A stretch of 54,398 bases of DNA from Planctomycetota bacterium. GTDB lineage: Bacteria > Planctomycetota > JAJSAM01 > JAJVHW01. The stretch is taken from assembly GCA_024277065.1 (NCBI GenBank), contig JAJRVY010000102.1, positions 1 through 54,398 of the forward strand. Reading direction: 5' to 3'. This document shows, piece by piece, positions 10,857 through 28,736 of the stretch. The notes beneath the pieces are model-generated. The model was not told the DNA's origin and did not search any database. It saw only the letters and a list, made by a program, of their open reading frames with translations. A program made the position numbers and the translations under genes. The first letter of the stretch is position 1. Each line of letters opens with the position of its first letter.

Positions 10857-10897
10857 CCACGCAGCCTACCCAATTCGATCGAACAGGTCGCCGGAGG

Positions 10898-11951: not shown

Positions 11952-12207
11952 TTTCGCCTCCTCGTCCGTCGCGCGGACCCATCGACGACGTCGCCGAACA
12001 GCGGAACGGTACCGGGCAACCGCCCGCACGACATAGTTCGACGAGGCCGGAGCACCGAATGGGAAACGCCGCTCGGAGCCTGCCCCGCGCCGTTCGTCCC
12101 GCGCCCTGGCAATCCGTCCCTTGCCGCCGGATGTGCGCGGCGCCCCCTCTATGCTCGGCACCGGGGCGCCACATCGACGCCCGCCCGTCCCCGTGAAGGA
12201 GTCGCTC

Positions 12208-13020
12208 ATGTCCGCCCGCCCGCTCGTCCCCGCTCTCGCGCTCGCAGTCGCCGCCTCCGTCCTCGTGGCCGCCACGGCGCTGTCCGGCTGCTGCTCCGAC
12301 ACGACCACCGACGGCCCGGACCTCGGCGCCGAGCTCCGCGCCCTGCGCAAGTCGCTCGATGCCTCGCGCGATGCCACCGCGCGCCTCTCCACGGAGGTCC
12401 AGCGCCAGAATCGCCGACTCAACGACCTCTCGCGACGCGTCACCGAGAACGGCGAGCGGCGACGGATGGTGGGAACACCGTCCGCGCCCGCGGCGCCCGG
12501 CCACGAAGGCGAGGCGGCCGCGGCGGGCGTGGGGAGCGACGCGAGCGCGCCCACGAGCGAGATCGCGTCCGAGGTCGCGGCCGTGCTCGCCTCGGAGGAC
12601 GGCCGCAAGGTCGTGGCGGCCGCCGCGCGGGGCGCGATCGCCGAGCGCGCGTCGCGGGAGCGTGACGCCTTCGTAGCGTACTCGCTGTCCCGCTTCGCCG
12701 ACGAGGCGGGCCTCAGCGAGACCCAGAGCCGCGAGGTGCGCAAGGTGTGGGACGACGTCATGGCGGACGCGCGCAAGATGATGCGTGACGCGGCACCGAA
12801 GCCCGGGATGACACCGGAGGAGCGGGCGCAGAAGGTGCAGGAGATCAGCGCCGGCATGCGCGATCTCGGTACGCGCCGCCAGGAGGAGATGAGGTCGATC
12901 CTCGACGACACGCAGTGGGAACTCTACGAGAAGCGCCAGGAGGACATCGACGCCGGGCTCCACGGAGCCCCGCCGCGGGGTCGCACCGAGACCGGCTCCG
13001 GCGACGCGCCGCAGCGCTGA
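12208..13020 (+). CDS. Lipoprotein with coiled coil and LTXXQ (Spy/CpxP-like) C-terminal region
   Basis: ATG 12208 after AAGGAG. Lipobox LSGC, coiled coil, GLSETQ...ILDDTQWELYEK motifs. Confidence 0.7.
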   Translation: MSARPLVPALALAVAASVLVAATALSGCCSDTTTDGPDLGAELRALRKSLDASRDATARLSTEVQRQNRRLNDLSRRVTENGERRRMVGTPSAPAAPGHEGEAAAAGVGSDASAPTSEIASEVAAVLASEDGRKVVAAAARGAIAERASRERDAFVAYSLSRFADEAGLSETQSREVRKVWDDVMADARKMMRDAAPKPGMTPEERAQKVQEISAGMRDLGTRRQEEMRSILDDTQWELYEKRQEDIDAGLHGAPPRGRTETGSGDAPQR

Positions 13021-13078
13021 CGCGAGTCACGGGCGCATCCCGCTTGTGCCGCCGGCCCGGCGCCGCGAACCTCTGGTG

Positions 13079-14125
13079 ATGGAGCAGTCCGAAGCGCACG
13101 TGGAGAACGGGGGCGAGACCGCGCTGGCGGCGCTGCGTCCGCGCGTCTGGCTCTCGTCGCTCGGCGTGTGGGCTCTCGTGGCCGTTCTCGTGACGGCGAC
13201 CGTCGTCCACACGCACTCCCGAGCGGCGGACTTCGTCGCACTACTGAGCGCGGCGCTGCCCGCGTGGATCGCGTACGTGCTGCTGACGCCCCCCGTCATC
13301 GCCCTCGACGCCTGGCTCGCGAGCCACCCACGTCCGCAATGGGTGCGAGTCGGCGCGCTGATCCTCGGCGGCGCACTGTTCGTCACGCTGCTCCACCTGC
13401 TGTCGCGCGTCGTCGGCAGCAACGCGACGATGCCGTGGTCGTGGGTCGTGTACGCCGTGCTCGTCGTGCTGGCACGCAGCAGGCGGCGACGCCGGATGCT
13501 GCGCGCGCGCGAACTCCAGGCGGAGAGTCTGCGGCGCCAGCTCGCGGAGGCGCGCGTCGCGGCACTCCAGTCGCGGCTCCAGCCGCACTTCCTGTTCAAC
13601 ACGCTGCACGCCGTCTCCGCCACGCTCGAGGACGATCCCGGGAAGGCCCGGCGCATGCTCGTGCGGCTGAGTGACCTGCTGCGCTCGGTCCTGCGGCTCG
13701 ACGCGCCGGAGGTCTCGCTCGCGAGCGACATCGAGATCCTGCGCCCCTACGTCGAGCTGCAGTCGATCCGCTTCGGGGAGCGCTTGGACGTACGCATCGA
13801 CATCCCCGACGACCTGCGCTCGTACTCCGTACCGGCGTTGCTGCTCCAGCCACTCGTCGAGAACGCCGTGACGCACGGCATCGGTCCGCGGGCGGAGGGG
13901 GGCACGATCGTCGTGACGGCGCGCGAGGAGCACGGCGTGCTGGTCGCCTGCGTCAGCGACGACGGCGTGGGGCCGCCTGCGGACGGCGCGCGAGAGGGAA
14001 TCGGCCTCGGCAACCTGAGGGAACGCCTCGACACGCTCTACGGCCCGGCGGCGCGTCTCACGATCGCGCCCGCTGCGCCGCGCGGCACGCGCGTCGAGGT
14101 CCACATCCCGGAGCGCGCGCCATGA
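13079..14125 (+). CDS. LytS/YehU family sensor histidine kinase
   Basis: N-terminal TM helices, LQSRLQPHFLFNTLH H-box, LLLQPLVENAVTHG, VSDDGVG, GIGLGNLRERL. Confidence 0.93.
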   Translation: MEQSEAHVENGGETALAALRPRVWLSSLGVWALVAVLVTATVVHTHSRAADFVALLSAALPAWIAYVLLTPPVIALDAWLASHPRPQWVRVGALILGGALFVTLLHLLSRVVGSNATMPWSWVVYAVLVVLARSRRRRRMLRARELQAESLRRQLAEARVAALQSRLQPHFLFNTLHAVSATLEDDPGKARRMLVRLSDLLRSVLRLDAPEVSLASDIEILRPYVELQSIRFGERLDVRIDIPDDLRSYSVPALLLQPLVENAVTHGIGPRAEGGTIVVTAREEHGVLVACVSDDGVGPPADGAREGIGLGNLRERLDTLYGPAARLTIAPAAPRGTRVEVHIPERAP

Positions 14126-14877
14126 CGGCCATGGCGCGCGTGCTCCTCGTGGACGACGAGCGCCTGGCGCGCGACGAGGTCCGGCGACACCTCGGCCGGC
14201 ATGCCGGAATCGAGATCGTCGGCGAGGCCACGGACGGCGCGGCGGCGGTCGAGAGCATCGTGCTCCTGGCGCCCGACATCGTGTTCCTCGACATCGAGAT
14301 GCCGGAACTGGACGGCTTCGAGGTGCTCCAGGCGGTCCCGGACGACGAACGCCCGGTGGTGGTGTTCGTCACGGCCTACGACGAGTTCGCCCTGCGCGCG
14401 TTCGAGGCGCGCGCCGTGGACTACCTGCTGAAGCCATTCGACGAGGAGCGCTTCGACGCGGCCCTCGCCCGCGCTCTCGTCCACGTCCACGGCCGGGCCG
14501 CGGCGCTCGGCGAGCTCTTGACCGACGTCGCGCGCGCCGGCCACCGGCCGACGCGCATCGCGGCCCGCGCCGGGCGCCGTTTCCACCTTCTGGACGTCGC
14601 CGACATCGAGCGCCTCGAGGCGTCACGCAACTACGTCCTCGTGCACACCGCCGGCGGCGAGTACCTGACGCGCACGACGCTGACGTCGCTCGCGGAGCGG
14701 CTCGACCCGGGCGAGTTCCTGCGCATCCACCGCAGTCACGTCGTGCGCATCGAGTCCGTCGCAGCTCTCGATCGCGCGAGTTCCGGCGACCTCGATGTGC
14801 GCCTGCGCGACGGCACCACGCTGCCCGTCGCCCGCAGCAAGCGAAGCCAGGTGCTCGAACGGTTCCAGGCCCTCTGA
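14122..14877 (+). CDS. LytTR family response regulator
   Basis: Receiver domain (LVDDE, FLDIEMPELDG, FVTAYDEFA, DYLLKP) plus LytTR domain (FLRIHRSHVV). ATGA overlap with the kinase gene. Confidence 0.95.
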   Translation: MTAMARVLLVDDERLARDEVRRHLGRHAGIEIVGEATDGAAAVESIVLLAPDIVFLDIEMPELDGFEVLQAVPDDERPVVVFVTAYDEFALRAFEARAVDYLLKPFDEERFDAALARALVHVHGRAAALGELLTDVARAGHRPTRIAARAGRRFHLLDVADIERLEASRNYVLVHTAGGEYLTRTTLTSLAERLDPGEFLRIHRSHVVRIESVAALDRASSGDLDVRLRDGTTLPVARSKRSQVLERFQAL

Positions 14878-15019
14878 GGTCCGCGATCGGGAAGGGACGT
14901 GGCAGACCACGGGGACCGCGAGTCTGCTCGCATCTTCCGCCCCCCCCCCTCCGTGTGCGGCGCCCGGGCGTCGCAGCGAACGAGTACGCCCGCCATCCGT
15001 TAGCCCGGGAGGAGAGCCC

Positions 15020-16562
15020 GTGCGCCGCACTCTGACGATCTGTCTATTCGCGACCTGTCTCGTCGCCGCCGGTTCGGTGACCACCGCGCAGGTGCGCGCG
15101 GGCGGGTTCGAGCCGGTCGTCGTGCCCGACCGCAAGGGGCGTGACACGCTGTACGCATGGCTCAGTACGATCGGCTACCCCGACGGCGTCGGCACCGAGA
15201 CCGTCGTGCTGCGATCGCGGGCGAACGAACTGGCGTTCGTCGTGGGCGACAGCGACGAGAGCCTGGATCTGTTCTCCGTGGACGGCGCGGCTGTGACGAT
15301 CACGCGCGCCGACGCAGACGGTACACCCGAGCGCGCTGCGGGTGCAGCTCATCGCCGAACTCGGCGGCGCCGAGGACGACAGCGTCACCGACGTGCTGCG
15401 GGGCGAGTGCGCCGCGGACCGTCCGTTCGCCGTGCGGCAGATCGCCGCGCAGCGACTGCGTCCCCGCGACCCTCGGGCGGCCCGGCAGATCGTCCTGGAT
15501 CTCTGGCGCACGGACGCGGGGCCGATCGCCATCGACTATCCGGCCGCGCAGGCGGTGGTCGTGGAGCACCAGGATCGCGAGAGCGCGTGGAGTCGTCTGA
15601 TTCCGGATCTCGTCGCGACGGAGGCGTGGAGCGCAATCGCGATGGAACTGCCGCAGAAGACCCCGTGGACGCGCGTCCACGTGCTGCGACAGATCGCCAC
15701 CTCGGCACCTGCGCCACTCGCGGAGCGAGCCGTGGCGGAGATGCTGCTCGACGGCCTGCTCGACGGAAGCGAGCTGCCGGACGCCGTGGGCACGGGCGAC
15801 ATCGGGAACTGCCCGGACCCGCGCGTCTGCGACGTCATCGGCACAGCACTGGCCGGACGCGGCGACGCGGTCGCCACGCTCCGCTCGTTCCCCGCTCTCG
15901 CTGCGCGTGAAGACCGTGATATCGCCTTCGCTACGGCGCGCGCCGCCCTGCGCTCGGCGCTCGGGCAGGAGCCGCGCCCCACGCCCACCGCGTTCCGCGT
16001 CACGCCTCTCGCCGACGCCGACGTGGCGCCTCTCGCGCTTGCCTGCCGGACCGGCGATCTCGCTGCGCAGGATCGTGCAGAGGACGCGATCGCCGCCGCG
16101 GGCCTGCCCGCACTGCCGCCACTGCGGCGCGCGTTCGGGGCGCTCACGAGCGGCGTTCCGGGCCGGCGTGCGTTCGCGCGCGCACTGTCGCGGCTCGCCA
16201 CGACGGTGGGCCGCGTGATCGTGCGCCCGGACGTGGACGAACACGTCGCTGCGGCCGTCTTGCCTCTCGCTGACCGGCCACTGGACGTTCGCGCACTCGT
16301 CGCGTCGTTGCGGGCGCTGCTCGACGACGGCCGTGCTCTCACGCTCTTGGTGCATCGACCGGCGGACGGCACCGGCGTCACGATCGTGGTCGCGGCGCCC
16401 GCGACGTCCCAGCGCTACCGGCTGGAGATGAACGGTGCGCACGGCCGGTCATCCCACCGCAACTTGGATGAGGCTGCCTGGGACCGTGTGGAGGAGGAGC
16501 TGCGCGCAGCGGTCACGACGCCCCACGACACGGGCTGGGCGGTTCGCATTCGGCTGCGCTGA
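15020..16562 (+). pseudogene. Secreted hypothetical protein with HEAT-like region, split by a frame change near 15300-15345
   Basis: GTG 15020 after GGAGGAG gives a signal peptide and about 100 protein-like residues, then that frame becomes Arg-rich nonsense. Protein-like coding continues in another frame (ALRVQLIAELGG...RVCDVIGTALA) to the stop at 16562. Confidence 0.55.
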
Positions 16563-16629
16563 CGCCGGCTCGCGGAACCCTGTGCGCCTCCACTCACGGC
16601 GTTCCCCTGACGGCGCAGGCACGACCTTC

Positions 16630-19539
16630 TCAGACCATCTGGCGCGCCATCATGCGAGCGAACGGTCCCTCGCTCGCGGTGAGTTCCTCGAAGGTGCCCT
16701 GCTGCACGATGCAGCCCTCGTCGAGCACGTAGATGCGGCTCGCGCTGCGGACCGTGCTGAGGAGGTGCGCGATGACGATGCGCGTCACGCTGCGCCGCGC
16801 GAGGCTCTCGCCCACGACGCTCTGCGTGCGATTGTCGAGCGCGCTGGTGGCCTCGTCGAAGAGCAGGATGCAGGGGCGCACGACGAGCGCACGGGCGATC
16901 AACAGCCGCTGACGCTGCCCGCCGGAGAGGTTGCCGCCACCTTCGCTGACCACGGTGTGCAGGCCCATGGGCATCTGTGCGAGGTCGCTCTCGAGGCCCG
17001 CGTCGCGCGCCGCCTCCATGGCCTCGTCGAGAGACACGAGACTGCCGCACGCGATGTTGTCGTAGATGGACCCGGTGTTCAGCCGCCCCGACTGCAGGAC
17101 GACGCCGAGCTGCCTGCGCACGGCGGTGACGTCCAGGCCCGCGACGTCCTGGCCGTCGAACAGCACGGCGCCAGACTCCGGTGCTTCGAAGCCCAGGAGC
17201 AGCCGGAAGACCGTGGACTTGCCGCTGCCCGACGGGCCGACCAGGGCGATGAACTCGCCGGGCTCCGCCCGCAGGCTGATGTCGTCGAGGATCTTCGGTC
17301 CGTCGTCGCGGTAGCGGAAGACGATGCGCTCCAGCTCGACGCGGCCGGCCAGTCGTCCGGGGTCGGACTTCGAAGGGTCCACCTCCGGCTGCGCCTCGAG
17401 GATCGGGCGAATGCGCTTGCCGCGCGTCATCGTGTCCAGCATCCCGATGATCGTGTTGCTGAGCGACGTCGCGCCGCCGAGGAACGTCCCGAACGCCGCG
17501 TTGAACGCCAGGAACGTGCCGATGCTGAGCGGCTTCGCCGCGCCCTCGGCGAGCATCTGGCCGTAGCCGAACCAGAACAGCGAGATCGTGCCGAGCGTGG
17601 GCACGACGCCGTTGAAGATCACGACGTAGTCCTCGAGCCGCTGCGCGGCGAACATCACCCGGAGTTGTTCGGTGTAGCGCCGCACCCACGTCGTGTACGC
17701 GCGCTGTTCCGCGCCGGCGACGCGCAGTTTCGAGACGCCGCCCACGAGCTGGATGACGAGCCCGTAGAACGCCCCGCGCAGGTCCTCGAGGACGATGATC
17801 TTGCGCCGCACGGCCGCGCCGAACGACGCCGTGACGGCGAGGGCGACGGCCGTCACCACGACGGCGATGAGAGCGAGTTTCGCGCTGTAGTAGAGGAGCA
17901 GCCCCAGGTTGAGGAGTGCCAGGAAGCTCGTGAAGATGGTCCGCAGGGTCGCGCCGTTCAGCTCGCGGCCGACGTCGTTCGCGGCCAGCGCGCGGGACTG
18001 CAGGTCCCCCGATGAGTACTTCCTGAAGAACGACGGCTTGAGCGAGAGGAGGCGGTCCCAGACGGCCGCCTGGCTCGCGGCCTCGGTGCCCAGCCCGAGG
18101 CGCATGCTCACGACGCCCTCGGCGAGCGCGAAGACGGCCTGGCCGAAGGCCGCCGCGGCGAGCGCCAATCCCAGTTCCAGCAGCAGCCGGACGTTGGCCT
18201 CCGGGATGGCCTGATCCATCAGGAGCGCGGTGGCCTGCGGTGTGAGCATGCCCAGCAACGTGGCCGCCGTGCCGGTCATCAGGATGAACGCCAGATCACG
18301 TCCGCGGCCCGCCAGGGAGAAGCGCACGAGATCCCACAGAGTGAGCTTCCGTGCCGGGAGCGGGCGATACAGCATCACCGCCTCGGGATCGAGGGTCGCC
18401 GCCGTCGCTGCGTCCACCGGCGTCCGCTCGCGCGTCACCGGATCGAAGATCTCGTAGCGCTGGCGCCGCCCCTGGAGCAGTGCCAGCGGGCGCCGCTCTT
18501 CGTCCGCCGAGTACGCCACGAGAGGCCCGCAGTCCTGCCGCCACCACGCGCCCGAGAGCAGCACGCGACGGGTGCGCACGCGCGAGGCGCGGGCGATCGC
18601 GTCGAGCGGATCGGCCACGCGACCCATGTCCTCGGATCGCCCGGGGGGCTTGATCTCGACGCCCAGCGCGTCGCCGACGGCCGTGAGCACGGTGAGCAGC
18701 GACGTGTCGCAGGTGGCCGGGACGTCACGGGGATCCAGCACCGCTGCGAGATCCTCCAGCGCCGCGTCGGTCAGGTGTGCCTGGCGCCGACCACGCTCCT
18801 GCAATCGCCTGCGCTCGGCGTCGTCGGCGGCCAGCGCCTCACGCTGGAGATGCGCGAGCACGATGCGGTCGAGGTGCGAGAGTGCGGCGACGAGCTCCGC
18901 CGCGTCCGTGAGGGAGTTCGTGGCGCGCGCGCGCACGGTGGCCGCTCCCGCGGCGGTCACCCACATCGGTGAGCCGACGGGAAGCACGCCGTCACCGGCG
19001 GCGAGAGGCATCTCCGCGGCGCCCATGCAGTGCACCGTGCCCCGCTCGACGGCCATCCAGGCGACGCGGTCACTCGCGGGACGCAGGCACTGGCCGTCGT
19101 CCAGCGCAACCGCGCCGTCGTCCTCGACCTTCCGCGTGACGACGGGCGGCTCGAAGCCCGTGAGCAGTCGTCCGACGCGGTTCACCCACTGCTCGATGCG
19201 CGTCACGAACGGCGCCGGCAGAGTGCCACTGCGGCCGCGCGCCGTCGCGAGCGGCACGTCGCGCAGGCGCGCGGCCGCAGCGGCCACGGCGATGAGGCGC
19301 AACCGACGACCGGGCGCGCCCGGCACGGAGATCAGGGGCTCGCCCGCGCCGACGCGGAACAGGAAGCGCCGCGGCCCGACGGCGACGCCGCCGTCCGTCT
19401 CGGCGCAGAAGACCGCGACCGTGCCCGAGACGACGACGTGCATCGTGCCCGCACCATCCAGCAACAGGGGTTCGTTGCCGACCAGGGCGCGCTCGTCCTC
19501 GCCCGTGCCGGAGTCGCGCCGATCGGGGGCCGAGGTCAC
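16630..19539 (-). CDS. NHLP/Nif11 peptide export ABC transporter, permease/ATPase subunit without peptidase (TIGR03797-like)
   Basis: GTG 19539 overlaps the upstream stop. Long N-terminal region, IARASRVRTRRVLLSGAWWRQDCGPL, TM domain, GPSGSGKST, LSGGQRQRL, FDEATSALDN. Confidence 0.92.
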   Translation of the reverse strand: MTSAPDRRDSGTGEDERALVGNEPLLLDGAGTMHVVVSGTVAVFCAETDGGVAVGPRRFLFRVGAGEPLISVPGAPGRRLRLIAVAAAAARLRDVPLATARGRSGTLPAPFVTRIEQWVNRVGRLLTGFEPPVVTRKVEDDGAVALDDGQCLRPASDRVAWMAVERGTVHCMGAAEMPLAAGDGVLPVGSPMWVTAAGAATVRARATNSLTDAAELVAALSHLDRIVLAHLQREALAADDAERRRLQERGRRQAHLTDAALEDLAAVLDPRDVPATCDTSLLTVLTAVGDALGVEIKPPGRSEDMGRVADPLDAIARASRVRTRRVLLSGAWWRQDCGPLVAYSADEERRPLALLQGRRQRYEIFDPVTRERTPVDAATAATLDPEAVMLYRPLPARKLTLWDLVRFSLAGRGRDLAFILMTGTAATLLGMLTPQATALLMDQAIPEANVRLLLELGLALAAAAFGQAVFALAEGVVSMRLGLGTEAASQAAVWDRLLSLKPSFFRKYSSGDLQSRALAANDVGRELNGATLRTIFTSFLALLNLGLLLYYSAKLALIAVVVTAVALAVTASFGAAVRRKIIVLEDLRGAFYGLVIQLVGGVSKLRVAGAEQRAYTTWVRRYTEQLRVMFAAQRLEDYVVIFNGVVPTLGTISLFWFGYGQMLAEGAAKPLSIGTFLAFNAAFGTFLGGATSLSNTIIGMLDTMTRGKRIRPILEAQPEVDPSKSDPGRLAGRVELERIVFRYRDDGPKILDDISLRAEPGEFIALVGPSGSGKSTVFRLLLGFEAPESGAVLFDGQDVAGLDVTAVRRQLGVVLQSGRLNTGSIYDNIACGSLVSLDEAMEAARDAGLESDLAQMPMGLHTVVSEGGGNLSGGQRQRLLIARALVVRPCILLFDEATSALDNRTQSVVGESLARRSVTRIVIAHLLSTVRSASRIYVLDEGCIVQQGTFEELTASEGPFARMMARQMV

Positions 19540-21749
19540 GGCGCCTCCCCGGCGCCGTCGGCCGTGCGCAGCAGCGCGGCGTAGGTGCCGCCACGCCGCC
19601 ACAACTCATCGTGCGTGCCACGTTCGACGACCTTGCCGCGATCGAGCACGATGATCTCGTCGCAGTCGCGAATCGTGCTGAGGCGATGGGCGACGACGAT
19701 GCAGGAGCAGCCCCGCAGCCGCAGTCGATCGGAGATGTTGCGCTCGGTCTCCGCGTCGAGGGCGCTGGTCGCCTCGTCGAGGACCAGGATCGTCGGGTCA
19801 CCGACGAGCGCACGCGCGATCTCGAGCCGCTGGCGCTGTCCACCGCTGAGCGTGTTGCCGCCCTCGCCGAGTTCGCTGTCGAGGCCTCCCGGCAACGAGC
19901 GCACGACATCGTGGATGTCCGCGTCGCGACACGCACGGACGAGCGTCTCCTCGGGAACCGTCGCGTCCCACAGCGTCAGGTTGTCGCGCACGGATCCGCC
20001 GAAGAGCGAGATGTCCTGATCGACCAGCGCGAGCGAGTTGTGGACCAGATCGCGCGGCACGTCCTCGCGCCGCGTCCCGTCGAGCAGGATCTCGCCCGAC
20101 CACGGCGAGAAGAGGCCGCAGATGATCTTGGCGATCGTGGACTTGCCGGACCCGCTGCCACCCACGAGCGCCACGCGCTGGCCGGGTTTGAGCACGAAGC
20201 CGAAGTCCTCGATGAGAGGGGGATCGAGAGGGCTGTAGCCGAACGTGACACCACGGAGCTCGATGGCCCCGCGCAGGCGCACGCGATCGGTGAGCGCTGC
20301 GGGCGCGGCGGACTCCTGCGGCTCGCCCGGCGCGGACGGATCGACCGAGTGGGCCAGCACGTCGTCGAGACGGGCCATGTCGCCGTGCAGTTCCTGGATC
20401 GTGCTGCCGAGTCCCACGAGGCTGTTCACGGGTCCGAGGAAGCTGAACATGAGGCTCTGGAAGGCCACGAGCATGCCGATGGTCAGGGCGCCGTCGATCA
20501 CGCGGTATCCGCCGACGACCAGGATGAGCAGCGTGGCCAGCCCGGTGAGCAGTGACGGCACGACGCCCAGCGCCTGGTTGGCGGTCTCGATCTCCTGCCG
20601 TGCGTTGGACGCGTTCGCGTAGTAGCCGTTCAGCTTGGCGAAGAAGCCCGACTCCTGGCCCGACGACTTGATCGTCTCCATGCTCTGCAACCCGGCGATG
20701 GCGGCGCCACCGACCTTGCCGTACTCCTGCAACAGACGCATGTTCGCCTCGACACGCCGTGACGAGAGCACCTTGAGCAACAGCACGTTCAGCAGCGCGA
20801 AGGCGATGCCGATGAGCGTCAGCACACCGTCGTAGAGGAACATCATCGCGGCGTAGAAGACGAGCATCACGACGTCGATGACGGTCGATGCGAGCTGCCC
20901 GGAAAGTACGTCGGCGACCTTGTCGTTGAGCTCCGTCCGGGACGTGATCTCGCCCGCGTAGCGCTGGGAGTAGAACTCCGCGGGCAGCCGTAGCAGGTGC
21001 CAGAAGAACTTCGCCGACATGCGCACGGACAGCGCGAGCTTGAGGCGCCGCAGGTAGCGCAGTTGCAGGAAACGCAGCGAGCCCTGCATCAACACGGTGC
21101 CGCACATGGCCACGACCAGCGGCCGCAGCCACTCCGAGCGTCCCTCGGCGAGCACGTTGTCGAGGAACACCTGCATGAACGCCGGCACGGCGAGGCCGGG
21201 GATGACGAGCAGGAACCCCGCCAGCACGCAGTACCAAACGGCCGCGTGGTTGCCGTGAAGCCGCTCGCGCAGCGCGGGCAGCATGCGGGGCCGGCGGCCG
21301 CCCTTCTCGAAGTCCGGTCCGGGGGACATGACGAGCGTGACGCCCGTGAACCCCTCGTCGAACTCCTCGAGCGTCACGGTTCGGTGGCCCACCGCAGGGT
21401 CGTTGAGGAAGACCTTGTCCTTCCCGAAGCCCTCCACGACGACGAAGTGGTTGAAGTGCCAGAAGATGATGTACGGGAGTTCCACGTCGCGCAGCGACTC
21501 GACGCTCTTCGAGAAGCCCTTCGCGTTCAGCCCGTAGCGCCGCGCCGCCTTGACGACGTTGGACGCGCGGGAGCCGTCGCGCGAGACGCCGCACTCCCGG
21601 CGCAGTTCGGCCAGCGGCACGATGCGGCCGTGATGGCCGAGGATCATGCCGAGAGCCGCCGCGCCGCACTCGACGGCCTCCATCTGGATGACCGTCGGCG
21701 TGGACCGCCGCCGTGGCACCGCACGCGACCTGTCGGTCAGGAAGGGCAA
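19536..21749 (-). CDS. NHLP/Nif11 peptide export ABC transporter with C39 peptidase (PCAT, TIGR03796-like)
   Basis: TPTVIQMEAVECGAAAL (catalytic Cys), CGVSRDGS, FWHFNHFVVVEG (catalytic His), NDPA, TM domain, GGSGSGKST, LSGGQRQRLEIARAL. Confidence 0.95.
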   Translation of the reverse strand: MPFLTDRSRAVPRRRSTPTVIQMEAVECGAAALGMILGHHGRIVPLAELRRECGVSRDGSRASNVVKAARRYGLNAKGFSKSVESLRDVELPYIIFWHFNHFVVVEGFGKDKVFLNDPAVGHRTVTLEEFDEGFTGVTLVMSPGPDFEKGGRRPRMLPALRERLHGNHAAVWYCVLAGFLLVIPGLAVPAFMQVFLDNVLAEGRSEWLRPLVVAMCGTVLMQGSLRFLQLRYLRRLKLALSVRMSAKFFWHLLRLPAEFYSQRYAGEITSRTELNDKVADVLSGQLASTVIDVVMLVFYAAMMFLYDGVLTLIGIAFALLNVLLLKVLSSRRVEANMRLLQEYGKVGGAAIAGLQSMETIKSSGQESGFFAKLNGYYANASNARQEIETANQALGVVPSLLTGLATLLILVVGGYRVIDGALTIGMLVAFQSLMFSFLGPVNSLVGLGSTIQELHGDMARLDDVLAHSVDPSAPGEPQESAAPAALTDRVRLRGAIELRGVTFGYSPLDPPLIEDFGFVLKPGQRVALVGGSGSGKSTIAKIICGLFSPWSGEILLDGTRREDVPRDLVHNSLALVDQDISLFGGSVRDNLTLWDATVPEETLVRACRDADIHDVVRSLPGGLDSELGEGGNTLSGGQRQRLEIARALVGDPTILVLDEATSALDAETERNISDRLRLRGCSCIVVAHRLSTIRDCDEIIVLDRGKVVERGTHDELWRRGGTYAALLRTADGAGEAP

Positions 21750-21753
21750 GCAG

Positions 21754-23187
21754 CTACTCTCCCGAGATACAGGACCGCAGGAACGGAAGTACGAACGTGA
21801 TCGGGGCGCGCTCCTCGGTGGTCACGCGAATCGTGGCGGTGGTGCCGGCCGTGACGTCCAGTTCGGGGCCGCCGGACGACGTCCACTCGAGGCCGCTGAA
21901 GGTGGTGGCATCCGGTGCCAGATCCGCGAACACCTCGATGCGGTTGCCGCCGCCGGTGAGCACCTGCGCCATCTCGCGATTGCCCACCTGGTTGGCGGCG
22001 GCGTCGGTGGTCACCGGGTACGCGGAGACCGCCGTGACGGCGCCGCGGATGCTGCCGAAACGCTCGCGCGGCACGGTCGAGGGGCTGATACGCGCCTTCA
22101 TGCCCGGCTCGATGCGCTTGCCGTCCGCCACGAGGAAGTAGGCCACGGCGAGCAACCGGCTCGCAGGATCCTCCGCCTCCATCGCGCCCAGCCTCTGCCC
22201 CGCAACGACGTAGGTGCCCACTGCCGCAGTCACCTCCAGGATGCGCCCGGAGTACTCGCTGACGATCCGTCCGCGCGTCTCGAGCTGACCCTCCAGCCGC
22301 GTGATCAACCTCTGGATGCCCTCCACCTCGCTCGCGCTGGACAGGGAACCCGACAGGAGGCGCCGGTCGATCTCGGCTTCCTTGATCTCCAGCGTCTGCA
22401 ACTGGATGCCGAGGTCGGCGATGCGATCGAGCTGCTCGAGGTAGGTTTCCTCGCTCTCGATCTCGCGCAGTTCCACGCCTTGCAGCGACACGCCGAGCTC
22501 GGCGAGCCGCAGTTTGTTCTCGATGAACGCGCGGCGCGAGTTCACCACCGCGTCCTCGGAGCTGAGTCCCTCGGACCTGAGGGCCTTGTAGCTCGCGAAA
22601 CGCTGCTGCAGGGCGAGGTCCAACTCGTCGCACAGACGCCGCGTCGTCGCGAGATTCGCGCGCTGCTGCTCGATGTACGCACGGTTCTTGGCCAACACGC
22701 TCTCCGCCATCTCGCCGAGTTTCGCGACGCGCTTCTCGATGAGTTCCCGCTGCCGGGCGAGGAAGCGCTTCTCCTTCTCGGCCTGCTCCTTCTCGAACGA
22801 GGTCAACGTCGCGTCGCGCGTGCGGAACTGGGCCAGCTTGCCGCGCTCCTCGGTGAGCTGCCGCTCGATCTCGGGGAGGTTCAGCGTCCCGAGGAGCTGC
22901 CCCTTCTTCACGAAGTCCCCCACGCGCACGTCGAGCGAGACGAGCTGTCCGCTCGCGGGCGACTGGAAGGCCACGACCTGCCGAGGATGGGCGAGAAGCG
23001 CGGTGCCGGTGGCCGTGATCGGAATGCGCCCGACGAAGCTCCAGGCGACGGCCAGCGCCAACGCGACGCTCGCGGCCACCAGCGGCAGCCAGTTTCGCCG
23101 CTTGACGACCCGCAGTAGTTCGTCGAGCCGGTCCGGGGTTGACAGACGTTCCAGGGACTTCTTCCTGAAGATGCTCTTCGCGGCCAT
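21754..23187 (-). CDS. NHLP system HlyD-family membrane fusion/secretion protein (TIGR03794-like)
   Basis: IFRKKSLERLSTPDRLDELLRVV N-terminus, one TM helix, lipoyl halves, long coiled coil, PSTVPRERFGSIRG, LEWTSSGGP, PITFVLPFLR. Confidence 0.94.
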   Translation of the reverse strand: MAAKSIFRKKSLERLSTPDRLDELLRVVKRRNWLPLVAASVALALAVAWSFVGRIPITATGTALLAHPRQVVAFQSPASGQLVSLDVRVGDFVKKGQLLGTLNLPEIERQLTEERGKLAQFRTRDATLTSFEKEQAEKEKRFLARQRELIEKRVAKLGEMAESVLAKNRAYIEQQRANLATTRRLCDELDLALQQRFASYKALRSEGLSSEDAVVNSRRAFIENKLRLAELGVSLQGVELREIESEETYLEQLDRIADLGIQLQTLEIKEAEIDRRLLSGSLSSASEVEGIQRLITRLEGQLETRGRIVSEYSGRILEVTAAVGTYVVAGQRLGAMEAEDPASRLLAVAYFLVADGKRIEPGMKARISPSTVPRERFGSIRGAVTAVSAYPVTTDAAANQVGNREMAQVLTGGGNRIEVFADLAPDATTFSGLEWTSSGGPELDVTAGTTATIRVTTEERAPITFVLPFLRSCISGE

Positions 23188-23212: not shown

Positions 23213-23755
23213 CTATACGGTCCGCAACTGCCGCATGAACCAGTCGAATCTCGCCCCGGCGAGCGAGACGCTCTCGAGGAGTTCCGGCGAGAGCTCGTCC
23301 TCCTCGCGCTCGTTCTGCGCGAGCGAGTGCTTGCCGCCCTTGGCGTGCATCGCCGTCGTGGCGGTCAGGCGGTTCGCGAGGAACAGGCACAGCGCACGGT
23401 AGAAGCGCGCCGCGAAACCGTTGTCGCTGCGCAGTTTGGAGCGGAGCGTGTCGTGCGGGATGGCGAACACCCTCGAATCGAGCGTAGCCGTGACGGTCGC
23501 GCTCGCTGGACGGGCGTCCAGGAGCGCCATGTCGCCGACGACCTCACCGCAACCGAGCCGCGCCACCTCCTCGCCACGAAGAGCGGCAACGGTGATGCGG
23601 AACTCGCCGTCCAGGATGACGTACAGCCGGTCGAGCTGCCGGCCCTCGTGGATGATGGCCGTGCCCGTCGCGACACGCGTGGACGTGCCGGAACCCACGA
23701 GCCAGTGGAGGTCGTCCTCGCTGAGCTCGCCGAAGATGAAGAGGACCTTGCGCAT
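23213..23755 (-). CDS. Cyclic-nucleotide-binding domain protein of NHLP-type transport clusters (TIGR03896-like)
   Basis: MRKVLFIFGELSEDDLHWL, LYVILDG, GEVVGDMALLDARPASATV, GFAARFYRAL, EDELSPELLESVSLAGARFDW. First gene of the exporter operon. Confidence 0.88.
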   Translation of the reverse strand: MRKVLFIFGELSEDDLHWLVGSGTSTRVATGTAIIHEGRQLDRLYVILDGEFRITVAALRGEEVARLGCGEVVGDMALLDARPASATVTATLDSRVFAIPHDTLRSKLRSDNGFAARFYRALCLFLANRLTATTAMHAKGGKHSLAQNEREEDELSPELLESVSLAGARFDWFMRQLRTV

Positions 23756-23822
23756 CGACGCCCCTCCCCGGCTGCCGGTACAGCGCCCGCGGCGATCGCG
23801 AGTCGCATTGGGCAGCGCCTTA

Positions 23823-23832
23823 GTGATATCAC
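23823..23832. promoter_or_regulatory. Perfect palindrome GTGATATCAC in the divergent promoter region between the exporter operon and tolC
   Basis: 10-bp self-complementary, relatively AT-rich element in a 131-bp divergent intergenic gap. Confidence 0.35.
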
Positions 23833-23886
23833 CTTTCGCGGCGTAGTCTGTAGGCCGGAATCCAGGAACGGACTCGCACCAGAACC

Positions 23887-25566
23887 ATGCTCACGGCCCA
23901 CGACGTCTTCCGCGTCCCGACGGCACTGACACTCACGGTCGCAGTTCTCGCCGCCTCGTGCCAGCGGCCGTTCCTCGCCGACGACCCGCTCCTGTCACCC
24001 GACGCCGACGCCCGCTTTCGCACGATCGAGGCAATGGCGCTCGAGGACCGGTCGCGCACGCCACCCGTGACGCCCGACGCCGCGCAGGCGACGACGCCCG
24101 AGGAGAGCGCCACCGCGGAGAACGAGAAGCCGTCGCTCTCGATACGGATCGAGGACGTCCGCAGTGACGCGCTGGCCAACAATCTGCTGCTCGAGGTACA
24201 GATCATCGACCCCGCCATCGCGGGCGCCGTCCTGGACGAGGAGGAGGCCAAGTTCGAGGCCGCGTTCTTCGCGCGCGTCGAGGCGCAGCGACGCGAGGTG
24301 AACGGCCCGCTCGCGCCGCCGCTCGACGCCACGACGAGCCGCCTCGAGCCGGGCATCCGCATCCCGCTGCGCGGCGGCGGAGAGGCGCGCGTCAGCCTGC
24401 CCGTGGAGTTCCGCGACGTGGACCCGCTCGGCGCGCCGTCGATCGACGCGACGGACAGCGGCGTGCGCTTCTCCTTCTCGCAGCCACTGCTTCGCGACGC
24501 CGGAGTCGGCGTCAACACGGCGTCCATCCAGGTCGCCCGCTTCAACGACCGGCGCGAGGAGGCGCGCAGCAAGCTCACCGCGATCCGCGTTCTCGCCAAC
24601 GCGGAGAAGGCCTACTGGGAGCTCTACGCCGCGACGCGCGAAGTGGAGATCCTGCACGACCGCTACGAGTCCACGCTGGAGCAGCTCGCCCAGGCCCGGC
24701 GCCTGGTCGTGGGAGGCGTCGTCGCCGAGATCGAGATCGTGCGCGCACAGGCGGGCGTCGCGCGCCGCCTCGAGTCGGTGATCTTCGCGGAGACGCGGCG
24801 CCGACTGGCCGAGACCGACCTCAAGCGCATCGTCAATCGACCGGACCTCCCTCTCGAGTCCGTCACCGTTCTCGTGCCGCAGACGGAGCCGCGCCCGCGC
24901 GGACTCGATCTGGACCCGCGAGCCATCGCGGCGCTGGCCATCACCAATCGCATGGAGCTGCTCGAACTCGAGATCCAACTCGCCATCGACGCGGTGAACG
25001 TCGAGGTGGCACGCAACGCAGAGCTCCCCGTGTTCGCACTGGACTTCGACTACTCCTTCAAGGGCACCGGAGACAGTTTCTCGGACTCGACGAGCAAGCT
25101 CGCGGACAACGACCTCGCGGACTGGGTCGTGGGCGCCACGATCGACATCCCGCTCGGCAACCACGCGGCGCGGGCACGCTTCCGTCAGGCCGTACTGCGC
25201 CGCACGCGGACCCTGGCGACGAGGGCGCTGCGCGAGCTCGCCATCCGCCAAGAGGTGAGCGACGCGCTCGACCAGCTCGAACAGGACTGGCAGCGGGTGC
25301 TCGCCGCGCGCCGCGAGACGATCCTCGTCGGTCGCAACTTCGAAGCCGAGCGCAGGCAGTTCCAGGCGGGCGTCCGCACGAGCACCGAGGTGCTGGAAGC
25401 CGCAGACTTCCTCGCGGAGGCGCGCACGCGGGAGGTGCGCGCGCTGGCCGACTACCAGGTCTCCATGGTGAATCTGGCGTTTGCGACGGGTACCGTCTTG
25501 GGACAGAGCCGCATTCACTGGCCCGCATTCGCCGCGGCCGCGCGGGAGGATCCCGCACAGGACTGA
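23887..25566 (+). CDS. TolC family outer-membrane efflux protein (lipoprotein signal)
   Basis: Lipobox LAASC and two OEP repeats (FSFSQPLLRDAG...EKAYWELY; LAITNRMEL...IDIPLGNHAARA...FQAGVRTSTEVL...LAFATGT). Confidence 0.92.
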   Translation: MLTAHDVFRVPTALTLTVAVLAASCQRPFLADDPLLSPDADARFRTIEAMALEDRSRTPPVTPDAAQATTPEESATAENEKPSLSIRIEDVRSDALANNLLLEVQIIDPAIAGAVLDEEEAKFEAAFFARVEAQRREVNGPLAPPLDATTSRLEPGIRIPLRGGGEARVSLPVEFRDVDPLGAPSIDATDSGVRFSFSQPLLRDAGVGVNTASIQVARFNDRREEARSKLTAIRVLANAEKAYWELYAATREVEILHDRYESTLEQLAQARRLVVGGVVAEIEIVRAQAGVARRLESVIFAETRRRLAETDLKRIVNRPDLPLESVTVLVPQTEPRPRGLDLDPRAIAALAITNRMELLELEIQLAIDAVNVEVARNAELPVFALDFDYSFKGTGDSFSDSTSKLADNDLADWVVGATIDIPLGNHAARARFRQAVLRRTRTLATRALRELAIRQEVSDALDQLEQDWQRVLAARRETILVGRNFEAERRQFQAGVRTSTEVLEAADFLAEARTREVRALADYQVSMVNLAFATGTVLGQSRIHWPAFAAAAREDPAQD

Positions 25567-25905
25567 CTGCTGCCGAGCGAGTGCGCGGCCTCCAGCGGGC
25601 ATCGGTTCTCCGCGCAGGACATCGACGATCTCGTCCTCGCCGCAGCCGTCACCGAGGCGCGCGAGGCCGGCGGCGAGCTGAGTCTGGAGGCGCTGGACGC
25701 CGCCGCAGGGGGCGTGGTGGGGCTCGGATCGAGCGCGATGCTCTCCCCGTCCTCGGCGCTGGCACGCCTCGGAAGCAGGGCCAGCGCCATGGGGATGCAC
25801 TTCCAACAGGCCATGCAAAGGCAGTCCCAGCTCACGAACGTGCTCAGCAACATGTTGAAGCAGCGGCACAACGCCTCCATGTCGATCATCAACAACATGC
25901 GGTGA
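25567..25905 (+). CDS. Double-glycine (Nif11/NHLP-like) leader precursor with a T3SS-needle-like core; start uncertain
   Basis: Open frame right after the tolC stop: LLPSECAASSGHRFSAQDIDDLVLAAAVTEAREAGGELSLEALDAAAGG / VVGLGSSAMLSPSSALARLGSRASAMGMHFQQAMQRQSQLTNVLSNMLKQRHNASMSIINNMR. No ATG/GTG/TTG before the leader; CTG at 25567 and 25570. Confidence 0.8.
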   Translation: MLPSECAASSGHRFSAQDIDDLVLAAAVTEAREAGGELSLEALDAAAGGVVGLGSSAMLSPSSALARLGSRASAMGMHFQQAMQRQSQLTNVLSNMLKQRHNASMSIINNMR

Positions 25906-26387
25906 TCGCCCGGGCCAGGTCGGCGCGGCAGCCGCTTGCAGATGCAATGCGCCGCGCCCGGCGCGCGGCGGCATCGATCCGCGTCTTCCGCAAGTCGCCG
26001 CGGACGACACCCGGGCCACTCGGGGATGCCCTGGCACGCTGGATCGACGGACATTCACTGGTCGCCGGGATGGACGACGAGTCCGCGCTGCTCGATGTCG
26101 CGCTGTCACCGGCGCCCGGCCTCGAGCGCATCCATCGCGCGCAGCCCACGGGCGACGGCTGGAACTCGACGTCACAACGGTTGCGCATCCGCGCGGGACT
26201 CTGCTGCGAGTCCGACGTCGATTCAGTGGCGGCCGAGATCGTCGGCCTGCTGGGCAACGGACGAACGCCCCGCGAGGCGCTCGCGGTGTTCGCAAAGCGT
26301 CACGTCATCTCCGTCGAGCCGTTCCTTCCGGGTCTGCCGGCTGCCCTCGCCAAACTCCTGGGCATGGGCGTGCTCACGCCGGGTTGA
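25902..26387 (+). CDS. PqqD/RRE-like winged-helix protein resembling the C-terminal part of a class I SAM methyltransferase (possibly a remnant)
   Basis: GTG 25902 overlaps the precursor stop; alternative ATG at 25947. LLDVALSPAPG...GDGW...RLRIRAGL...DVDSVAAEIVGLLGNGRTPREAL...LAKLLGMGVL. No SAM-binding motif present. Confidence 0.55.
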   Translation: MIARARSARQPLADAMRRARRAAASIRVFRKSPRTTPGPLGDALARWIDGHSLVAGMDDESALLDVALSPAPGLERIHRAQPTGDGWNSTSQRLRIRAGLCCESDVDSVAAEIVGLLGNGRTPREALAVFAKRHVISVEPFLPGLPAALAKLLGMGVLTPG

Positions 26388-26478
26388 GAGGAGCACGCGG
26401 CCATGGCACGCGCAGACCTCGGGTCCGGCGCCGTCCCGCAGGAACCGGCGCTCGTCGCCGGTGCGCGTGGGACGTCGA

Positions 26479-27831
26479 TCAGAAGTCCCACTCCGGCGCC
26501 GGGGCGGGCTCGCTCTTCTTCACGATCATCCCCGCGCCGACGGTCTGGTTCGTACTCTCTTCGATGAGGATGAAGGCACCTGTCGCGCGATTGGCCGAGT
26601 AGTCATCACAGAAGAGCGGCTTCTGCACGCGGATCAGGACACGACCGAGCTCGTTCAGATCGAGTTGATCGACGCCCTCGTCGCGATGGAGGGTGTTCAC
26701 GTCGATGCGGTAGCGCAGCACCTTGATGCGCGCCCGCACCTGCTTCGTCGTGTGACGCAGGAGGTACTTCTTCGCGGGGTCCATCTTGGAATCCGACATC
26801 CAGCAGACGGTGGCCTCGATCTCGTTCTCGATGCGCGGCACGTTCTGCGGGCGCACGATCATGTCGCCGCGACTCACGTCGATGTCGTCCTCTAGCGTGA
26901 GACAGACCGACTGCGGCGCGACAGCCGTGCGTAGATCCCCGTCGTACGTGACGATCGACGCCACCTTGCTGGTGATGCCCGACGGCAGGTGGACGACCTC
27001 GTCGCCGACCGACACGGCGCCGGACTCGATCTGCCCCATGTACCCGCGGAAGTCGTGCAGTTCGTCGGTCTGCGGACGGCTCACGTACTGCACCGGGAAA
27101 CGGAAGTCGATGAGGTTGCGGTCGAACGACGTCTCGAGGTTCTCGACGAGGTTGAGCAGTGTGCGGCCGTGATACCACGGCATCTTCTCGCCGCGCTCCA
27201 CCACCATGTCGCCGTTCAGCGCGGACAGCGGGATGTAGCGGATGTCCCGCGCCTCGAGCTTGGCGGCCCACTCGCGGAACTCGCCACGGATCTCCTCGAA
27301 ACGCGCCTAGGAGTAGTCCACGAGATCCATCTTGTTGACGGCGATCACGAGGTGCGGGATGCCGAGCAGCGCGGAGATGAACGCGTGGCGCTTGGTCTGC
27401 GTCAGGATGCCGTTGCGGGCGTCCACGAGAATGATCGCGACCTCGGCCGTGCTGGCCCCGGTCACCATGTTGCGCGTGTACTGGATGTGGCCCGGCGTGT
27501 CGGCGACGATGAACGAGCGCCGCGGCGTCGAGAAGTAGCGGTACGCGACGTCGATCGTGATGCCCTGCTCGCGCTCGGCACGCAGGCCGTCGGTGATCAG
27601 CGCGAGGTCCACGCCCTCGCCGCCACGCCGGCGGTTCACGTCCTCGACATGTTCGAGCTGGTCCTCGAACACCGCCTTGGTGTCCACCAGCAGCCGCCCG
27701 AGCAGCGTGGACTTGCCGTCGTCCACGGAGCCGGCGGTGGCCATGCGCAGCAGCTCGATCTTGCGCCCGAAGACCGCCTGGGCGGCGTTCGGTGCGGCGT
27801 CCCGGGGGGGGCGGGCGGCGTTCGAGGGCAT
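26479..27831 (-). pseudogene. cysN: Sulfate adenylyltransferase subunit 1 interrupted by an in-frame TAG at 27307-27309 (may be a sequence error)
   Basis: [61 protein letters not shown]..., then the same frame continues with SALNGDMVV, FRFPVQYV, GAFILIEE..NQTVGAGMI. Confidence 0.9.
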
Positions 27832-28736
27832 CAGAAGTAACCGTCCTTCTTCTTGTCTTCCATGGAGTCGGCGCCCTGATCGACGAGGCGCGTCTCGCGC
27901 TCGCTGCGCGTCGCCGTGAGGGCCTCGGCGACGATCTCCTCGAGCGTCGTGGCCGTTGACCGGATGGCGCCGGTGCAGGTCATGCAGCCGAGCGTGCGGA
28001 AGCGACAGACGATCTTCTGCGGCTTCTCGCCGGGCCGCAGGAGTCGCGTCTCCTGCGCCGACAGCAGGATGCCGCCGCGGTCCACGACCTCGCGCTCGGC
28101 GGCGAAGTACAGCGGAACGATCTCGATCTTCTCCTGGCGGATGTACTGCCAGATATCCGCCTCCGTCCAGTTGGACAGGGGGAAGACGCGGATCGACTCG
28201 CCCTCGTGGATGCGCGAGTTGTAGAGGTTCCAGAGTTCGGGCCGCTGGCGTTTGGGATCCCAGGCCCCGAATTCGTCGCGGAAGCTGAACACGCGCTCCT
28301 TGGCGCGCGAGCGCTCCTCCTCGCGACGGGCGCCGCCGATGGCCGCATCGAACGCGTGCTTCGCCAGGGCGGCCAGCAGCCCCTCGGTCTTGAGCGTCCG
28401 GGAGCAGTACGAGCACACGCGCGCCGGGTTCGAGAAGTCGGGCAGACGAGCGATGCCCGCCTCGTTCTTCTCGACGATCAGCCGGAACCCGCGCTCCCGC
28501 GCGACGCGCTCGCGGAACTCGTACATCTCCGGAAACTTGAGCCCCGTGTCCACGTGCAGCAGCGGGAACGGGATCGGACCGGGATGGAAGGCCTTCTCGG
28601 CCAGGCGCAGGAGAACGCTCGAGTCCTTCCCGACGGACCAGAGCATGACCGGGTTCTCGAAGCAGGCCGCGACCTCACGGATGATGTGGACCGACTCGGC
28701 CTCGAGCTGCTGCAGATGGGTGATCGTGTTCGACAT
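27831..28736 (-). CDS. cysD: Sulfate adenylyltransferase subunit 2
   Basis: [77 protein letters not shown]. Confidence 0.96.

Follow-up and report, generated by a model that had tools for sequence, protein, structure and literature searches.

The frame at 25567-25905 of a planctomycete contig raises two questions: whether it encodes a cargo peptide for the type I exporter whose genes lie beside it, and what kind of peptide that cargo would be. The window analysed, the whole 54,398-nucleotide stretch JAJRVY010000102.1, has a G+C content of about 70%. A sequence-only reading had proposed that a double-glycine (GG) leader is fused here to a core resembling SctF, the needle subunit of the type III secretion system (T3SS), and that the product leaves the cell through a peptidase-containing ABC transporter (PCAT). 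The core is probably not a modified scaffold of the kind found in peptides that are synthesized by ribosomes and modified after translation (RiPPs); it belongs, as a divergent member, to a large, unnamed helix family. For that family, export of members as PCAT cargo is well supported by the sequences compared, and for 25567-25905 itself the chances are evenly balanced that it is a GG-leader cargo gene of the adjacent NHLP-type exporter.

Read in frame 1, 25567-25905 gives the leader-like segment LLPSECAASSGHRFSAQDIDDLVLAAAVTEAREAGGELSLEALDAAAGG, the core VVGLGSSAMLSPSSALARLGSRASAMGMHFQQAMQRQSQLTNVLSNMLKQRHNASMSIINNMR and a stop codon. The GG codons occupy 25708-25713 and are followed directly by a GTG at 25714, which places the GG site immediately before residue 1 of the 63-residue core, as the sequence-only reading had it. 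The core begins VVGLGSS and ends IINNMR; it contains no Cys, and S, M, Q and N make up 29 of its 63 residues (11 residues are Ser), a composition that had likewise been described correctly. AF2 models the core as one long helix that spans residues 12-62 (25747-25899), with a pLDDT of 86.9.

The end of the leader satisfies three of the preferences for the GG cleavage motif (Leu2, Ser/Thr3, Leu7 and Val/Leu10) given by Haft et al. (2010; PMC2887384), namely Leu2, Ser3 and Leu7. The pattern LSxxxLxx[AVILM]xGG occurs seven times in the 8.2 million residues of the six-frame translation of the genome. Two of the seven matches precede the only two family cores of the genome, those of this open reading frame (ORF) and of a paralog on contig C160, and a further one belongs to a GG peptide on contig C272. 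Because the motif is this rare, and because two of its seven occurrences stand before family cores, it is not a chance feature. By manual count, the leader end is identical to that of the C160 paralog at 7 of 13 residues. A looser motif adds an ATG-started peptide with the short leader MTGDESDEPVAPAPEEAREKSEVLTEDELEDAAGG, also on C160, to which the leader end is identical at 12 of 23 residues (again a manual count).

A profile built from two leader ends with their cores (A1) was run in a full HMMER scan against 1.84 billion representative proteins and matched 404 at E<=1e-3, 10 of them at E<=1e-10; the counts of leaders, carriers and C-termini given below refer to the best 150 of these 404 representatives. 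The matched domain ends no more than 3 residues from the C-terminus in 147 of the 150. The part that defines the family is an amphipathic C-terminal helix of about 45 amino acids with the consensus MNMQFLALQxAxQxESRxFxTLSNxxKARHDxAMxxIRNM[KR], with an invariant His and near-invariant L, Q, Q, S, N, I and N. The core conforms to the membership motif LQxAxQxESRxFxTLSNxxKxRH[DE]xAxxxIxN[MIVL][KR] and retains each of the near-invariant Q, Q, S, N, H, I and N. An independent hidden Markov model (HMM), made from 129 members and excluding this ORF and its paralog, was searched against the 59,620 six-frame pieces of the genome and found only these two. The paralog scored E 2.7e-23; for this ORF the match, at E 1e-11 (47.9 bits), extends to its final residue.

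This result bears on the simplest alternative, that 25567-25905 is an open frame arisen by chance in GC-rich DNA and contains no gene. High-GC genomes are rich in long spurious ORFs, which are also seen around this site, and a scan of 23600-26500 for promoter-like and terminator-like sites found none. Against this stand the HMM match, one of only two genome-wide, the rarity of the GG motif in the genome and the adjoining exporter, and a chance origin is scarcely credible.

No significant Pfam or NCBIfam match was obtained for the family members scanned, and the only name found for them was 'hypothetical protein'. No published description of the helix family was found in the literature, supplements being outside that search, nor was any literature found that links NHLP with the type III secretion needle or double-glycine leaders with SctF. 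The family is present in 47 of 251 sampled Myxococcota genomes, with further occurrences in Gemmatimonadota, Bdellovibrionota, Planctomycetota, Kapaibacteria and Gammaproteobacteria metagenome-assembled genomes (MAGs). A further subfamily was seen in Myxococcota at loci L081, L082, L084 and L088; its proteins are 210-320 aa long, are often encoded as tandem pairs and end in ...DPEGFW...LQxxIQxxNQLFSMxSNxxKAxHDTxKAxISNLRV.

The N-terminal parts to which the helix is attached are diverse. By a crude rule, 64 of the 150 representatives have a signal-peptide-like N-terminus. A GG leader stands directly before the core in seven: P0001 and P0010 (NHLP), P0028 (Nif11-like), and P0084, P0115, P0117 and P0143, whose leaders are ATG-started and 26-54 aa long. 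The GG leaders of the family are therefore of at least three types. Other members have Gly-rich N-termini with a VxGxxIPGGxxLxxALG motif. In addition, some members at genome and metagenome loci carry an HExxHVxQQ region, which corresponds to eCIS_core (PF13699) in L135 (24.6 bits, cut-off 22) and falls below threshold in L036. A frame at L045 (2-10090, Planctomycetales chromosome CP060262) that stays open for more than 3300 aa ends in the family helix and contains repeated matches to Hcp (107.6 bits), the T4 gp19 tail tube (69.9 bits) and the gp5/VgrG OB domain (32.6 bits); it looks like a fused contractile-injection polyprotein with the helix module as its tip.

A search for related loci, which used a 22-row sub-alignment of the family, returned a second case in which GG-led family cores lie close to a PCAT. 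In L130, an unrelated metagenome locus (9926-19209, 48% GC), nine small tandem genes share one common leader, MARIKIEDLPxDMEISxEEMRKVLGG, and have different cores. The first two genes carry family cores, at 89.9 and 41.9 bits with the independent HMM, and one peptide of the array holds a VxGxxIPGGxxL-like motif alone. The array is followed by a double cNMP-binding protein, a 716-aa C39 PCAT (TIGR01193 515 bits and TIGR03796 533 bits, both below cut-offs) and an HlyD protein, and the family peptides lie 5.7 kb from the PCAT and HlyD genes. Among the 23 metagenome loci, L130 is the only one of three GG-type loci with flanking sequence, and no full-length PCAT was found at any long non-GG metagenome locus examined. 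Because L130 provides a second PCAT-linked case, the arrangement of GG leader, family core and PCAT is real and recurrent, yet a minority use of the domain. Judged by the architectures compared, the helix is a portable exported module, carried on Sec or lipoprotein signals, NHLP, Nif11-like and short GG leaders, eCIS_core proteins and an Hcp/VgrG-like giant.

The genome of the window itself contains an intact GG-led member, the C160 paralog P0001. It has an 88-aa NHLP leader (TIGR03793 52.8 bits, cut-off 50.9), the residues AAGG and a 61-aa core ending LSNALSAAHQSASNSIRNMK. Its neighbours are trpS and a gene that looks MerR-like by eye, and the PCAT is not adjacent. By Haft et al. (2010; PMC2887384), the TIGR03794, TIGR03796 and TIGR03797 families are tied to GG-leader precursors, several of which may occur per genome, some of them distant from the exporter. 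By tblastn there is no second full-length PCAT-like match in the genome, other matches being about 30% identical and confined to the ABC part; with a single PCAT, the GG-leader peptides of the genome would plausibly share it. The three GG-leader candidates with unrelated cores on C160, C272 and C282 (Table 1) thus probably use the PCAT of the window.

The exporter genes lie on the upstream side of the frame (Table 1). All lie within 9 kb, with the C39 PCAT and HlyD genes 2.4-6 kb from the peptide. The predicted PCAT has Peptidase_C39 (124.5 bits), ABC_membrane and ABC_tran domains and is presumed to be the leader-cleaving exporter; it contains the stretches QMEAVECG, NHFVVV and NDP, which we take to hold the Cys/His/Asp triad. 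The cyclic-nucleotide-binding protein also matches TIGR03896, at 152.7 bits slightly below the cut-off of 161.05. The gene pair at 13046..14877 encodes His_kinase (77.7 bits) and HATPase_c domains, and Response_reg (83.1 bits) and LytTR (79.2 bits) domains. LytTR-type regulators often control peptide export loci, and this pair may regulate the exporter locus. No RiPP maturase family was detected among the neighbours scanned (5.3-31.6 kb of the window); according to Haft et al. (PMC2887384), RiPP maturases can lie far from the precursor.

Table 1. Positions of the features discussed, in window coordinates unless another contig of the genome (prefix G000) is named
Feature	Position	Strand	Remarks
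Leader-like frame	25567..25713	+	49 codons, zero ATG/GTG/TTG
Leader end, last 13 codons	25675-25713	+	ELSLEALDAAAGG, double-glycine cleavage motif
Core and stop	25714..25905	+	63 aa
Conserved C-terminal family domain	25801-25902		QxAxQxxS...LSNxxKxRHxxxMxxIxNMR
Candidate ribosome site and non-canonical start	25559..25572	+	AGGA 25559-25562, TGA stop, CTG CTG 25567-25572
NHLP bacteriocin export ABC permease/ATPase, no peptidase domain (second ABC subunit)	16630..19602	-	TIGR03797 920.1 bits, cut-off 709.4
PCAT: C39 peptidase, permease and ATPase	19536..21749	-	TIGR03796 1111 bits, cut-off 853.3
HlyD-type periplasmic adaptor, NHLP export	21754..23187	-	TIGR03794 340 bits, cut-off 156.2
Cyclic-nucleotide-binding protein, bacteriocin-transport-associated type	23213..23755	-	PF00027 66.7 bits
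TolC-like outer-membrane channel	23887..25566	+	PF02321 OEP 113.9 bits; TIGR01844 77.2 bits, sub-cut-off
146-aa gene 3' of peptide	25947..26387	+	PF25004 DUF7782 27.8 bits, cut-off 27
LytS-type histidine kinase and LytTR response regulator, upstream of exporter genes	13046..14877	+	
GG-leader candidate, unrelated core	G000:C160 9244-9525		Short ATG-started leader
GG-leader candidate, unrelated core	G000:C272 about 4902-5207		Reads ELSDAQLDQVAGG, then WGFSSF...
GG-leader candidate, unrelated core, Nif11 type	G000:C282 (L012 1450-1845)		TIGR03798 40.3 bits
Intact family paralog P0001, 149 aa	G000:C160 32678-33125 (L014 1468-1914)		

These features suggest a route by which the frame could act. 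The C39 peptidase domain of the PCAT (19536-21749) would bind the precursor at the leader end ELSLEALDAAAGG and cleave after the GG, between 25713 and 25714. The 63-aa core would then pass out of the cell by way of the PCAT, its ABC partner, HlyD and TolC. Once outside, it would most likely serve as an effector helix that associates with itself and has either a structural or an antagonistic (bacteriocin-like) role.

Several observations weigh against this reading of the frame. The leader frame opens directly behind the TGA of the TolC-like gene (25564-25566), whose frame it shares, and no ATG, GTG or TTG occurs in it between this stop and 25714. Just one database gene call was found, an ORF of 38 aa starting at ATG 25789 (P0002), which differs from the 63 aa given in the sequence-only reading. 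Gly occupies position -15 of the leader, where the GG-leader consensus has a hydrophobic residue. The leader lacks the N-terminal NHLP/Nif11 part that the C160 paralog carries, and TIGR03793, TIGR03798 and TIGR01847 gave no match to the 112-aa frame at E<=10; because of this the proposed 'Nif11/NHLP-style' membership of the leader is unsupported. At the level of the family, 143 of the 150 representatives are without a GG leader, so the family is not PCAT-specific, and no partner or immunity gene is conserved beside its members, those of Sec type having unrelated housekeeping genes as neighbours. No close ortholog of the frame, by which its conservation might be traced, came out of single-protein searches, and a family member of any kind is present in just 1 of 100 relatives. 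Neither the 112-aa frame nor the paralog core retrieved relatives in word-indexed protein searches, and a single-protein search of 60 relatives gave chance-level matches only, within long GC-rich frames. Finally, the neighbouring cysN gene (26479-28416, minus strand) has an in-frame TAG at 27307-27309, with the CysN frame resuming on either side; this may stem from a wrong base in the assembly or a nonsense mutation, or point to a pseudogene or local decay.

The absence of a canonical start and the scarcity of GG leaders in the family were both overlooked in the sequence-only reading. Its proposal of a PCAT/type I substrate is borne out as far as the adjoining exporter, the recurrence of GG-led family members, the NHLP paralog and L130 are concerned, and is weakened by the missing start; the link it expected between homologs of the core and GG leaders or PCATs holds for seven representatives and L130, and fails for the great majority.

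How the leader might be translated is suggested by the sequence at the TolC stop. Of the in-frame leader codons that could be of note (CTG at 25567, 25570, 25678, 25684 and 25693, and ATC at 25621), CTG 25570 sits 7 nt after an AGGA, a spacing that would suit coupled, non-canonical initiation at the stop codon of the TolC-like gene. The odds that this leader-core copy is translated are about even, and translation would require either CTG 25570 or an assembly base error. Base composition argues for a coding leader: at codon positions 1, 2 and 3 the leader has a G+C of 0.82/0.55/0.90 and the core one of 0.50/0.47/0.91, the neighbouring genes having a third-position G+C (GC3) of 0.90-0.92, and the excess of the first position over the second in the leader argues for the sense strand. 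An antisense ORF at 25515-26054 shares these third positions and looks like noise. A further possibility, recoding of TGA with readthrough of the TolC stop, was considered and dropped, because the in-frame stop of cysN is TAG and not TGA and because in a TolC-leader fusion the leader would end up in the periplasm.

The same observations could mean that 25567-25905 is the remnant of an NHLP- or Nif11-leader precursor, truncated at its 5' end, from which the start and the N-terminal leader half are missing and which is no longer translated as a precursor, the working copy being that on C160. The frame abuts the TolC stop without a canonical start, the gene caller used ATG 25789 only, the leader has no profile match, and the adjacent cysN gene has its in-frame TAG. 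The leader is also short, at most 49 aa compared with 88 aa in the C160 paralog and with the mean lengths of 83 and 70 aa given by Haft et al. (PMC2887384). However, GC3 of 0.90 and the excess of the first codon position over the second are maintained across all 49 leader codons, with no stop or frameshift, so any loss would be recent. GG leaders 26-35 aa long serve as entire leaders elsewhere in the family and within this genome, which implies that the N-terminal half is dispensable in principle, and the AGGA lies 7 nt before CTG 25570. On this evidence a truncated remnant is somewhat unlikely.

A leaderless cytoplasmic protein, translated from GTG 25714, GTG 25717 or ATG 25789 with the upstream GG motif untranslated, would agree with the public gene call of 38 aa and with the fact that these three codons are the only canonical starts in the frame; a purine-rich AGGGGG (25707-25712) lies 4 nt before GTG 25717. 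This run, which resembles a Shine-Dalgarno sequence, consists of the GG codons themselves, however. In addition, the 49 upstream codons have a coding GC profile and are homologous to real GG leaders of the same genome, and in other family members the domain always stands behind an export or carrier part. A leaderless product is thus highly improbable, and export of the core behind its GG leader remains the preferred reading.

The sequence-only reading had also cast the core as an SctF-type protomer, which after PCAT export would polymerise extracellularly to give a filament or pore of needle type, the leader keeping it monomeric until then. This is distinctly unlikely, although a likeness exists. 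The ungapped alignment with PrgI, flush at the C-terminus with 9 of 34 identities, was reproduced with database needle sequences of Salmonella (P0196, P0208) and Shigella. When the 34 residues were shuffled 20000 times, 0.035% of the shuffles reached 9 identities and none the BLOSUM62 score, the test being post hoc and on a fixed alignment. Comparison of the family alignment (A2) with a 19-row SctF alignment (A4) by hhalign, with no secondary-structure term and over short helices, gave a probability of 69.5% (E 4.2e-5, score 29.0), the 40 aligned columns running flush to both C-termini. A score of 29.0 was reached by none of 100 column shuffles (maximum 18.6) and by none of 70 heptad-block shuffles (mean 17.6, sd 3.4, maximum 24.6). 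The likeness is unevenly distributed within the family: the NIR-type subfamily (...N[IVL]R, 32 rows) gave 81.5% and a score of 33.9, whereas the NMK-type (...RNM[KR], 99 rows), to which this core belongs, gave only 41.7% and a score of 25.4, with a shuffle maximum of 23.5.

Profile matches point the same way, and the indirect comparisons as a whole give a consistent signal of moderate strength. Among 131 members scanned, there were 16 member-matches to HrpA_pilin (6), HrpF (6) and T3SS_needle_F (4), all below cut-off, and in the four members checked individually these matches end no more than 1 residue from the C-terminus. Occludin_ELL (7 members) and other coiled-coil families match at a similar level among the same 131. 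One member matches the NCBIfam model T3SS_pilin_HrpA at E 2.4e-5. The ESM Atlas neighbours, which serve as a lead only, include a Myxococcota cluster with PF09392 on 11% of its proteins (0.88) and an HrpA cluster (0.84).

Other comparisons tell against a needle protomer. No Pfam match reaches cut-off (29.4 bits for PF09392): the four PF09392 matches among the 131 members lie below it, the best at E 0.0018, and at E<=10 the model is absent from the 112-aa and 63-aa proteins and from the whole genome. BLASTP of the core against MxiH gave no match at E<=100, and comparison of MxiH by itself with the family profile gave 4.3%; the MxiH sequence was taken from plasmid pCP301 because 300 genomes of one gammaproteobacterial class had yielded a single near-cut-off needle. 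No needle protein was found at E<=10 by phmmer or hmmsearch against PDB sequences. The Foldseek comparison with SctF that had been proposed returned, with both models, no needle protein and nothing significant, a lone helix being uninformative for a fold search. SctF subunits have a helix-turn-helix hairpin whose turn reads P-(S/D)-(D/N)-P. A PSxP turn is visible in the SctF alignment; the core has no PxxP before its helix, and the models of the core and of P0018 (the latter from a 131-row alignment, confident for one helix at 86-135 and of low confidence elsewhere) contain a single helix rather than a hairpin. Moreover, the SctF alignment is dominated by the Inv/Mxi-Spa clade (Neff 2.9), and most relatives of the core have Sec signals or other carriers, whereas needle subunits have no Sec signals. 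A four-copy complex prediction of the core scored 0.34 against a mark of 0.42 and counts neither way. Overall, the needle likeness appears to be a real but remote similarity of one helix, to which the claim of a needle-like core can be reduced.

The genome (91.6% complete) offers no T3SS in which such a needle could function. In tblastn searches with nine Shigella Mxi-Spa proteins at E<=1e-8, no SctV, C, J, R, S, T, U or Q was found, and the only matches were ATPase-like, at 26-28% identity. In Myxococcota, one locus is of interest for the needle proposal: in a Myxococcales MAG (G064:C258; L094, 7700-13766), a 148-aa family member (68.4 bits) lies directly after FHIPEP/sctV (624 bits). It is followed by a 99-aa ORF, a 210-aa ORF, a second family member and a 124-aa ORF that is weakly TPR-like (TPR matches below cut-off). 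The 99-aa ORF was considered as SctI, which was unsupported by BLASTP against MxiI (E 0.7) and by Pfam. This is, however, the only one of the 34 sctV loci examined with a family member nearby; the other Myxococcota loci, a set of 18 and a set of 15, have none within about 8-10 kb.

A FHIPEP gene was present in 47 of 47 family-bearing and in 95 of 204 family-less genomes among the 251 Myxococcota sampled (tables compared by eye); because kinship was uncontrolled, this co-occurrence is a lead and not a test. Most FHIPEP matches of the family-bearing genomes, again by eye, lie at about 690-785 bits.

A broader evolutionary proposal is that the C-terminal polymerisation helix of T3SS needle or Hrp pilus subunits left the injectisome and became a portable self-assembling module, secreted by Sec, behind GG leaders via PCAT/type I export, and on contractile-injection carriers, with PCAT-exported copies like the present one and the NHLP paralog building extracellular filaments or lumen-forming bundles and the sctV-adjacent members of the Myxococcales MAG being the missing SctF of the Myxococcota. 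This proposal is rather unlikely to hold. According to Abby & Rocha (2012; PMC3459982), Myxo T3SSs are without SctF, and if the sctV-adjacent members were SctF, the needle subunit of these 'needle-less' systems would be accounted for.

The exporter at this locus, an NHLP-type PCAT with HlyD and TolC, is a textbook one; the cargo family is new and lies outside Pfam and NCBIfam. The most useful result is thus a widespread, undescribed C-terminal helix module that is exported in several ways. A short helix delivered by at least four routes would be a small new module of effector or toxin type, or else a unit that assembles with itself and is related to the needles of injectisomes. For studies of PCATs, the intact NHLP paralog, the short-leader members and the L130 array form a testable set of substrates.

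As in the NHLP/Nif11 systems of Haft et al. (PMC2887384), the same three exporter families adjoin the frame, the leader end has the Leu2, Ser3 and Leu7 motif, and the genome holds several precursors, some of them distant, with the C160 paralog passing the TIGR03793 cut-off. Unlike NHLP/Nif11 precursors, the present frame has a leader outside TIGR03793 and TIGR03798 and no canonical start; its core is a conserved helical domain, found also on hundreds of non-GG proteins, rather than a hypervariable Cys/Ser/Thr-rich scaffold, and no modifying enzyme was seen among the neighbours scanned.

The core remotely resembles SctF (MxiH, PrgI; PF09392), HrpA (PF09589) and HrpF (PF06266) in a helix that runs to the very C-terminus with the pattern SN..K...D/H......I.N.[RK]. 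It differs from all three in having no N-terminal helix and no P-x-x-P turn, which is why the models contain no hairpin, and in belonging to a genome without T3SS genes.

Unmodified class II-type GG bacteriocins and microcins (TIGR01847, TIGR01193), as generally characterized, combine a short GG leader with a C39 PCAT, HlyD and TolC, as is the case here, and lack a maturase, none having been detected among the neighbours scanned here either. The nearby LytTR two-component pair and the single common leader of the L130 array are further points of likeness. The cores of such bacteriocins are Gly-rich or hydrophobic, whereas strongly polar residues (S, Q, N, M, R, K) dominate here, and no immunity gene was recognised.

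A final comparison is with polymorphic toxins and effectors, among them eCIS_core cargo and evolved VgrG. The module is about 45 aa long, far below the size of known toxin domains, with no catalytic motif or immunity partner recognised. Like them, however, a single C-terminal module is found on quite different carriers: on an eCIS_core protein (PF13699, formerly DUF4157; L135), on the Hcp/gp19/VgrG giant (L045), on Sec proteins and on GG-leader proteins such as those considered here.

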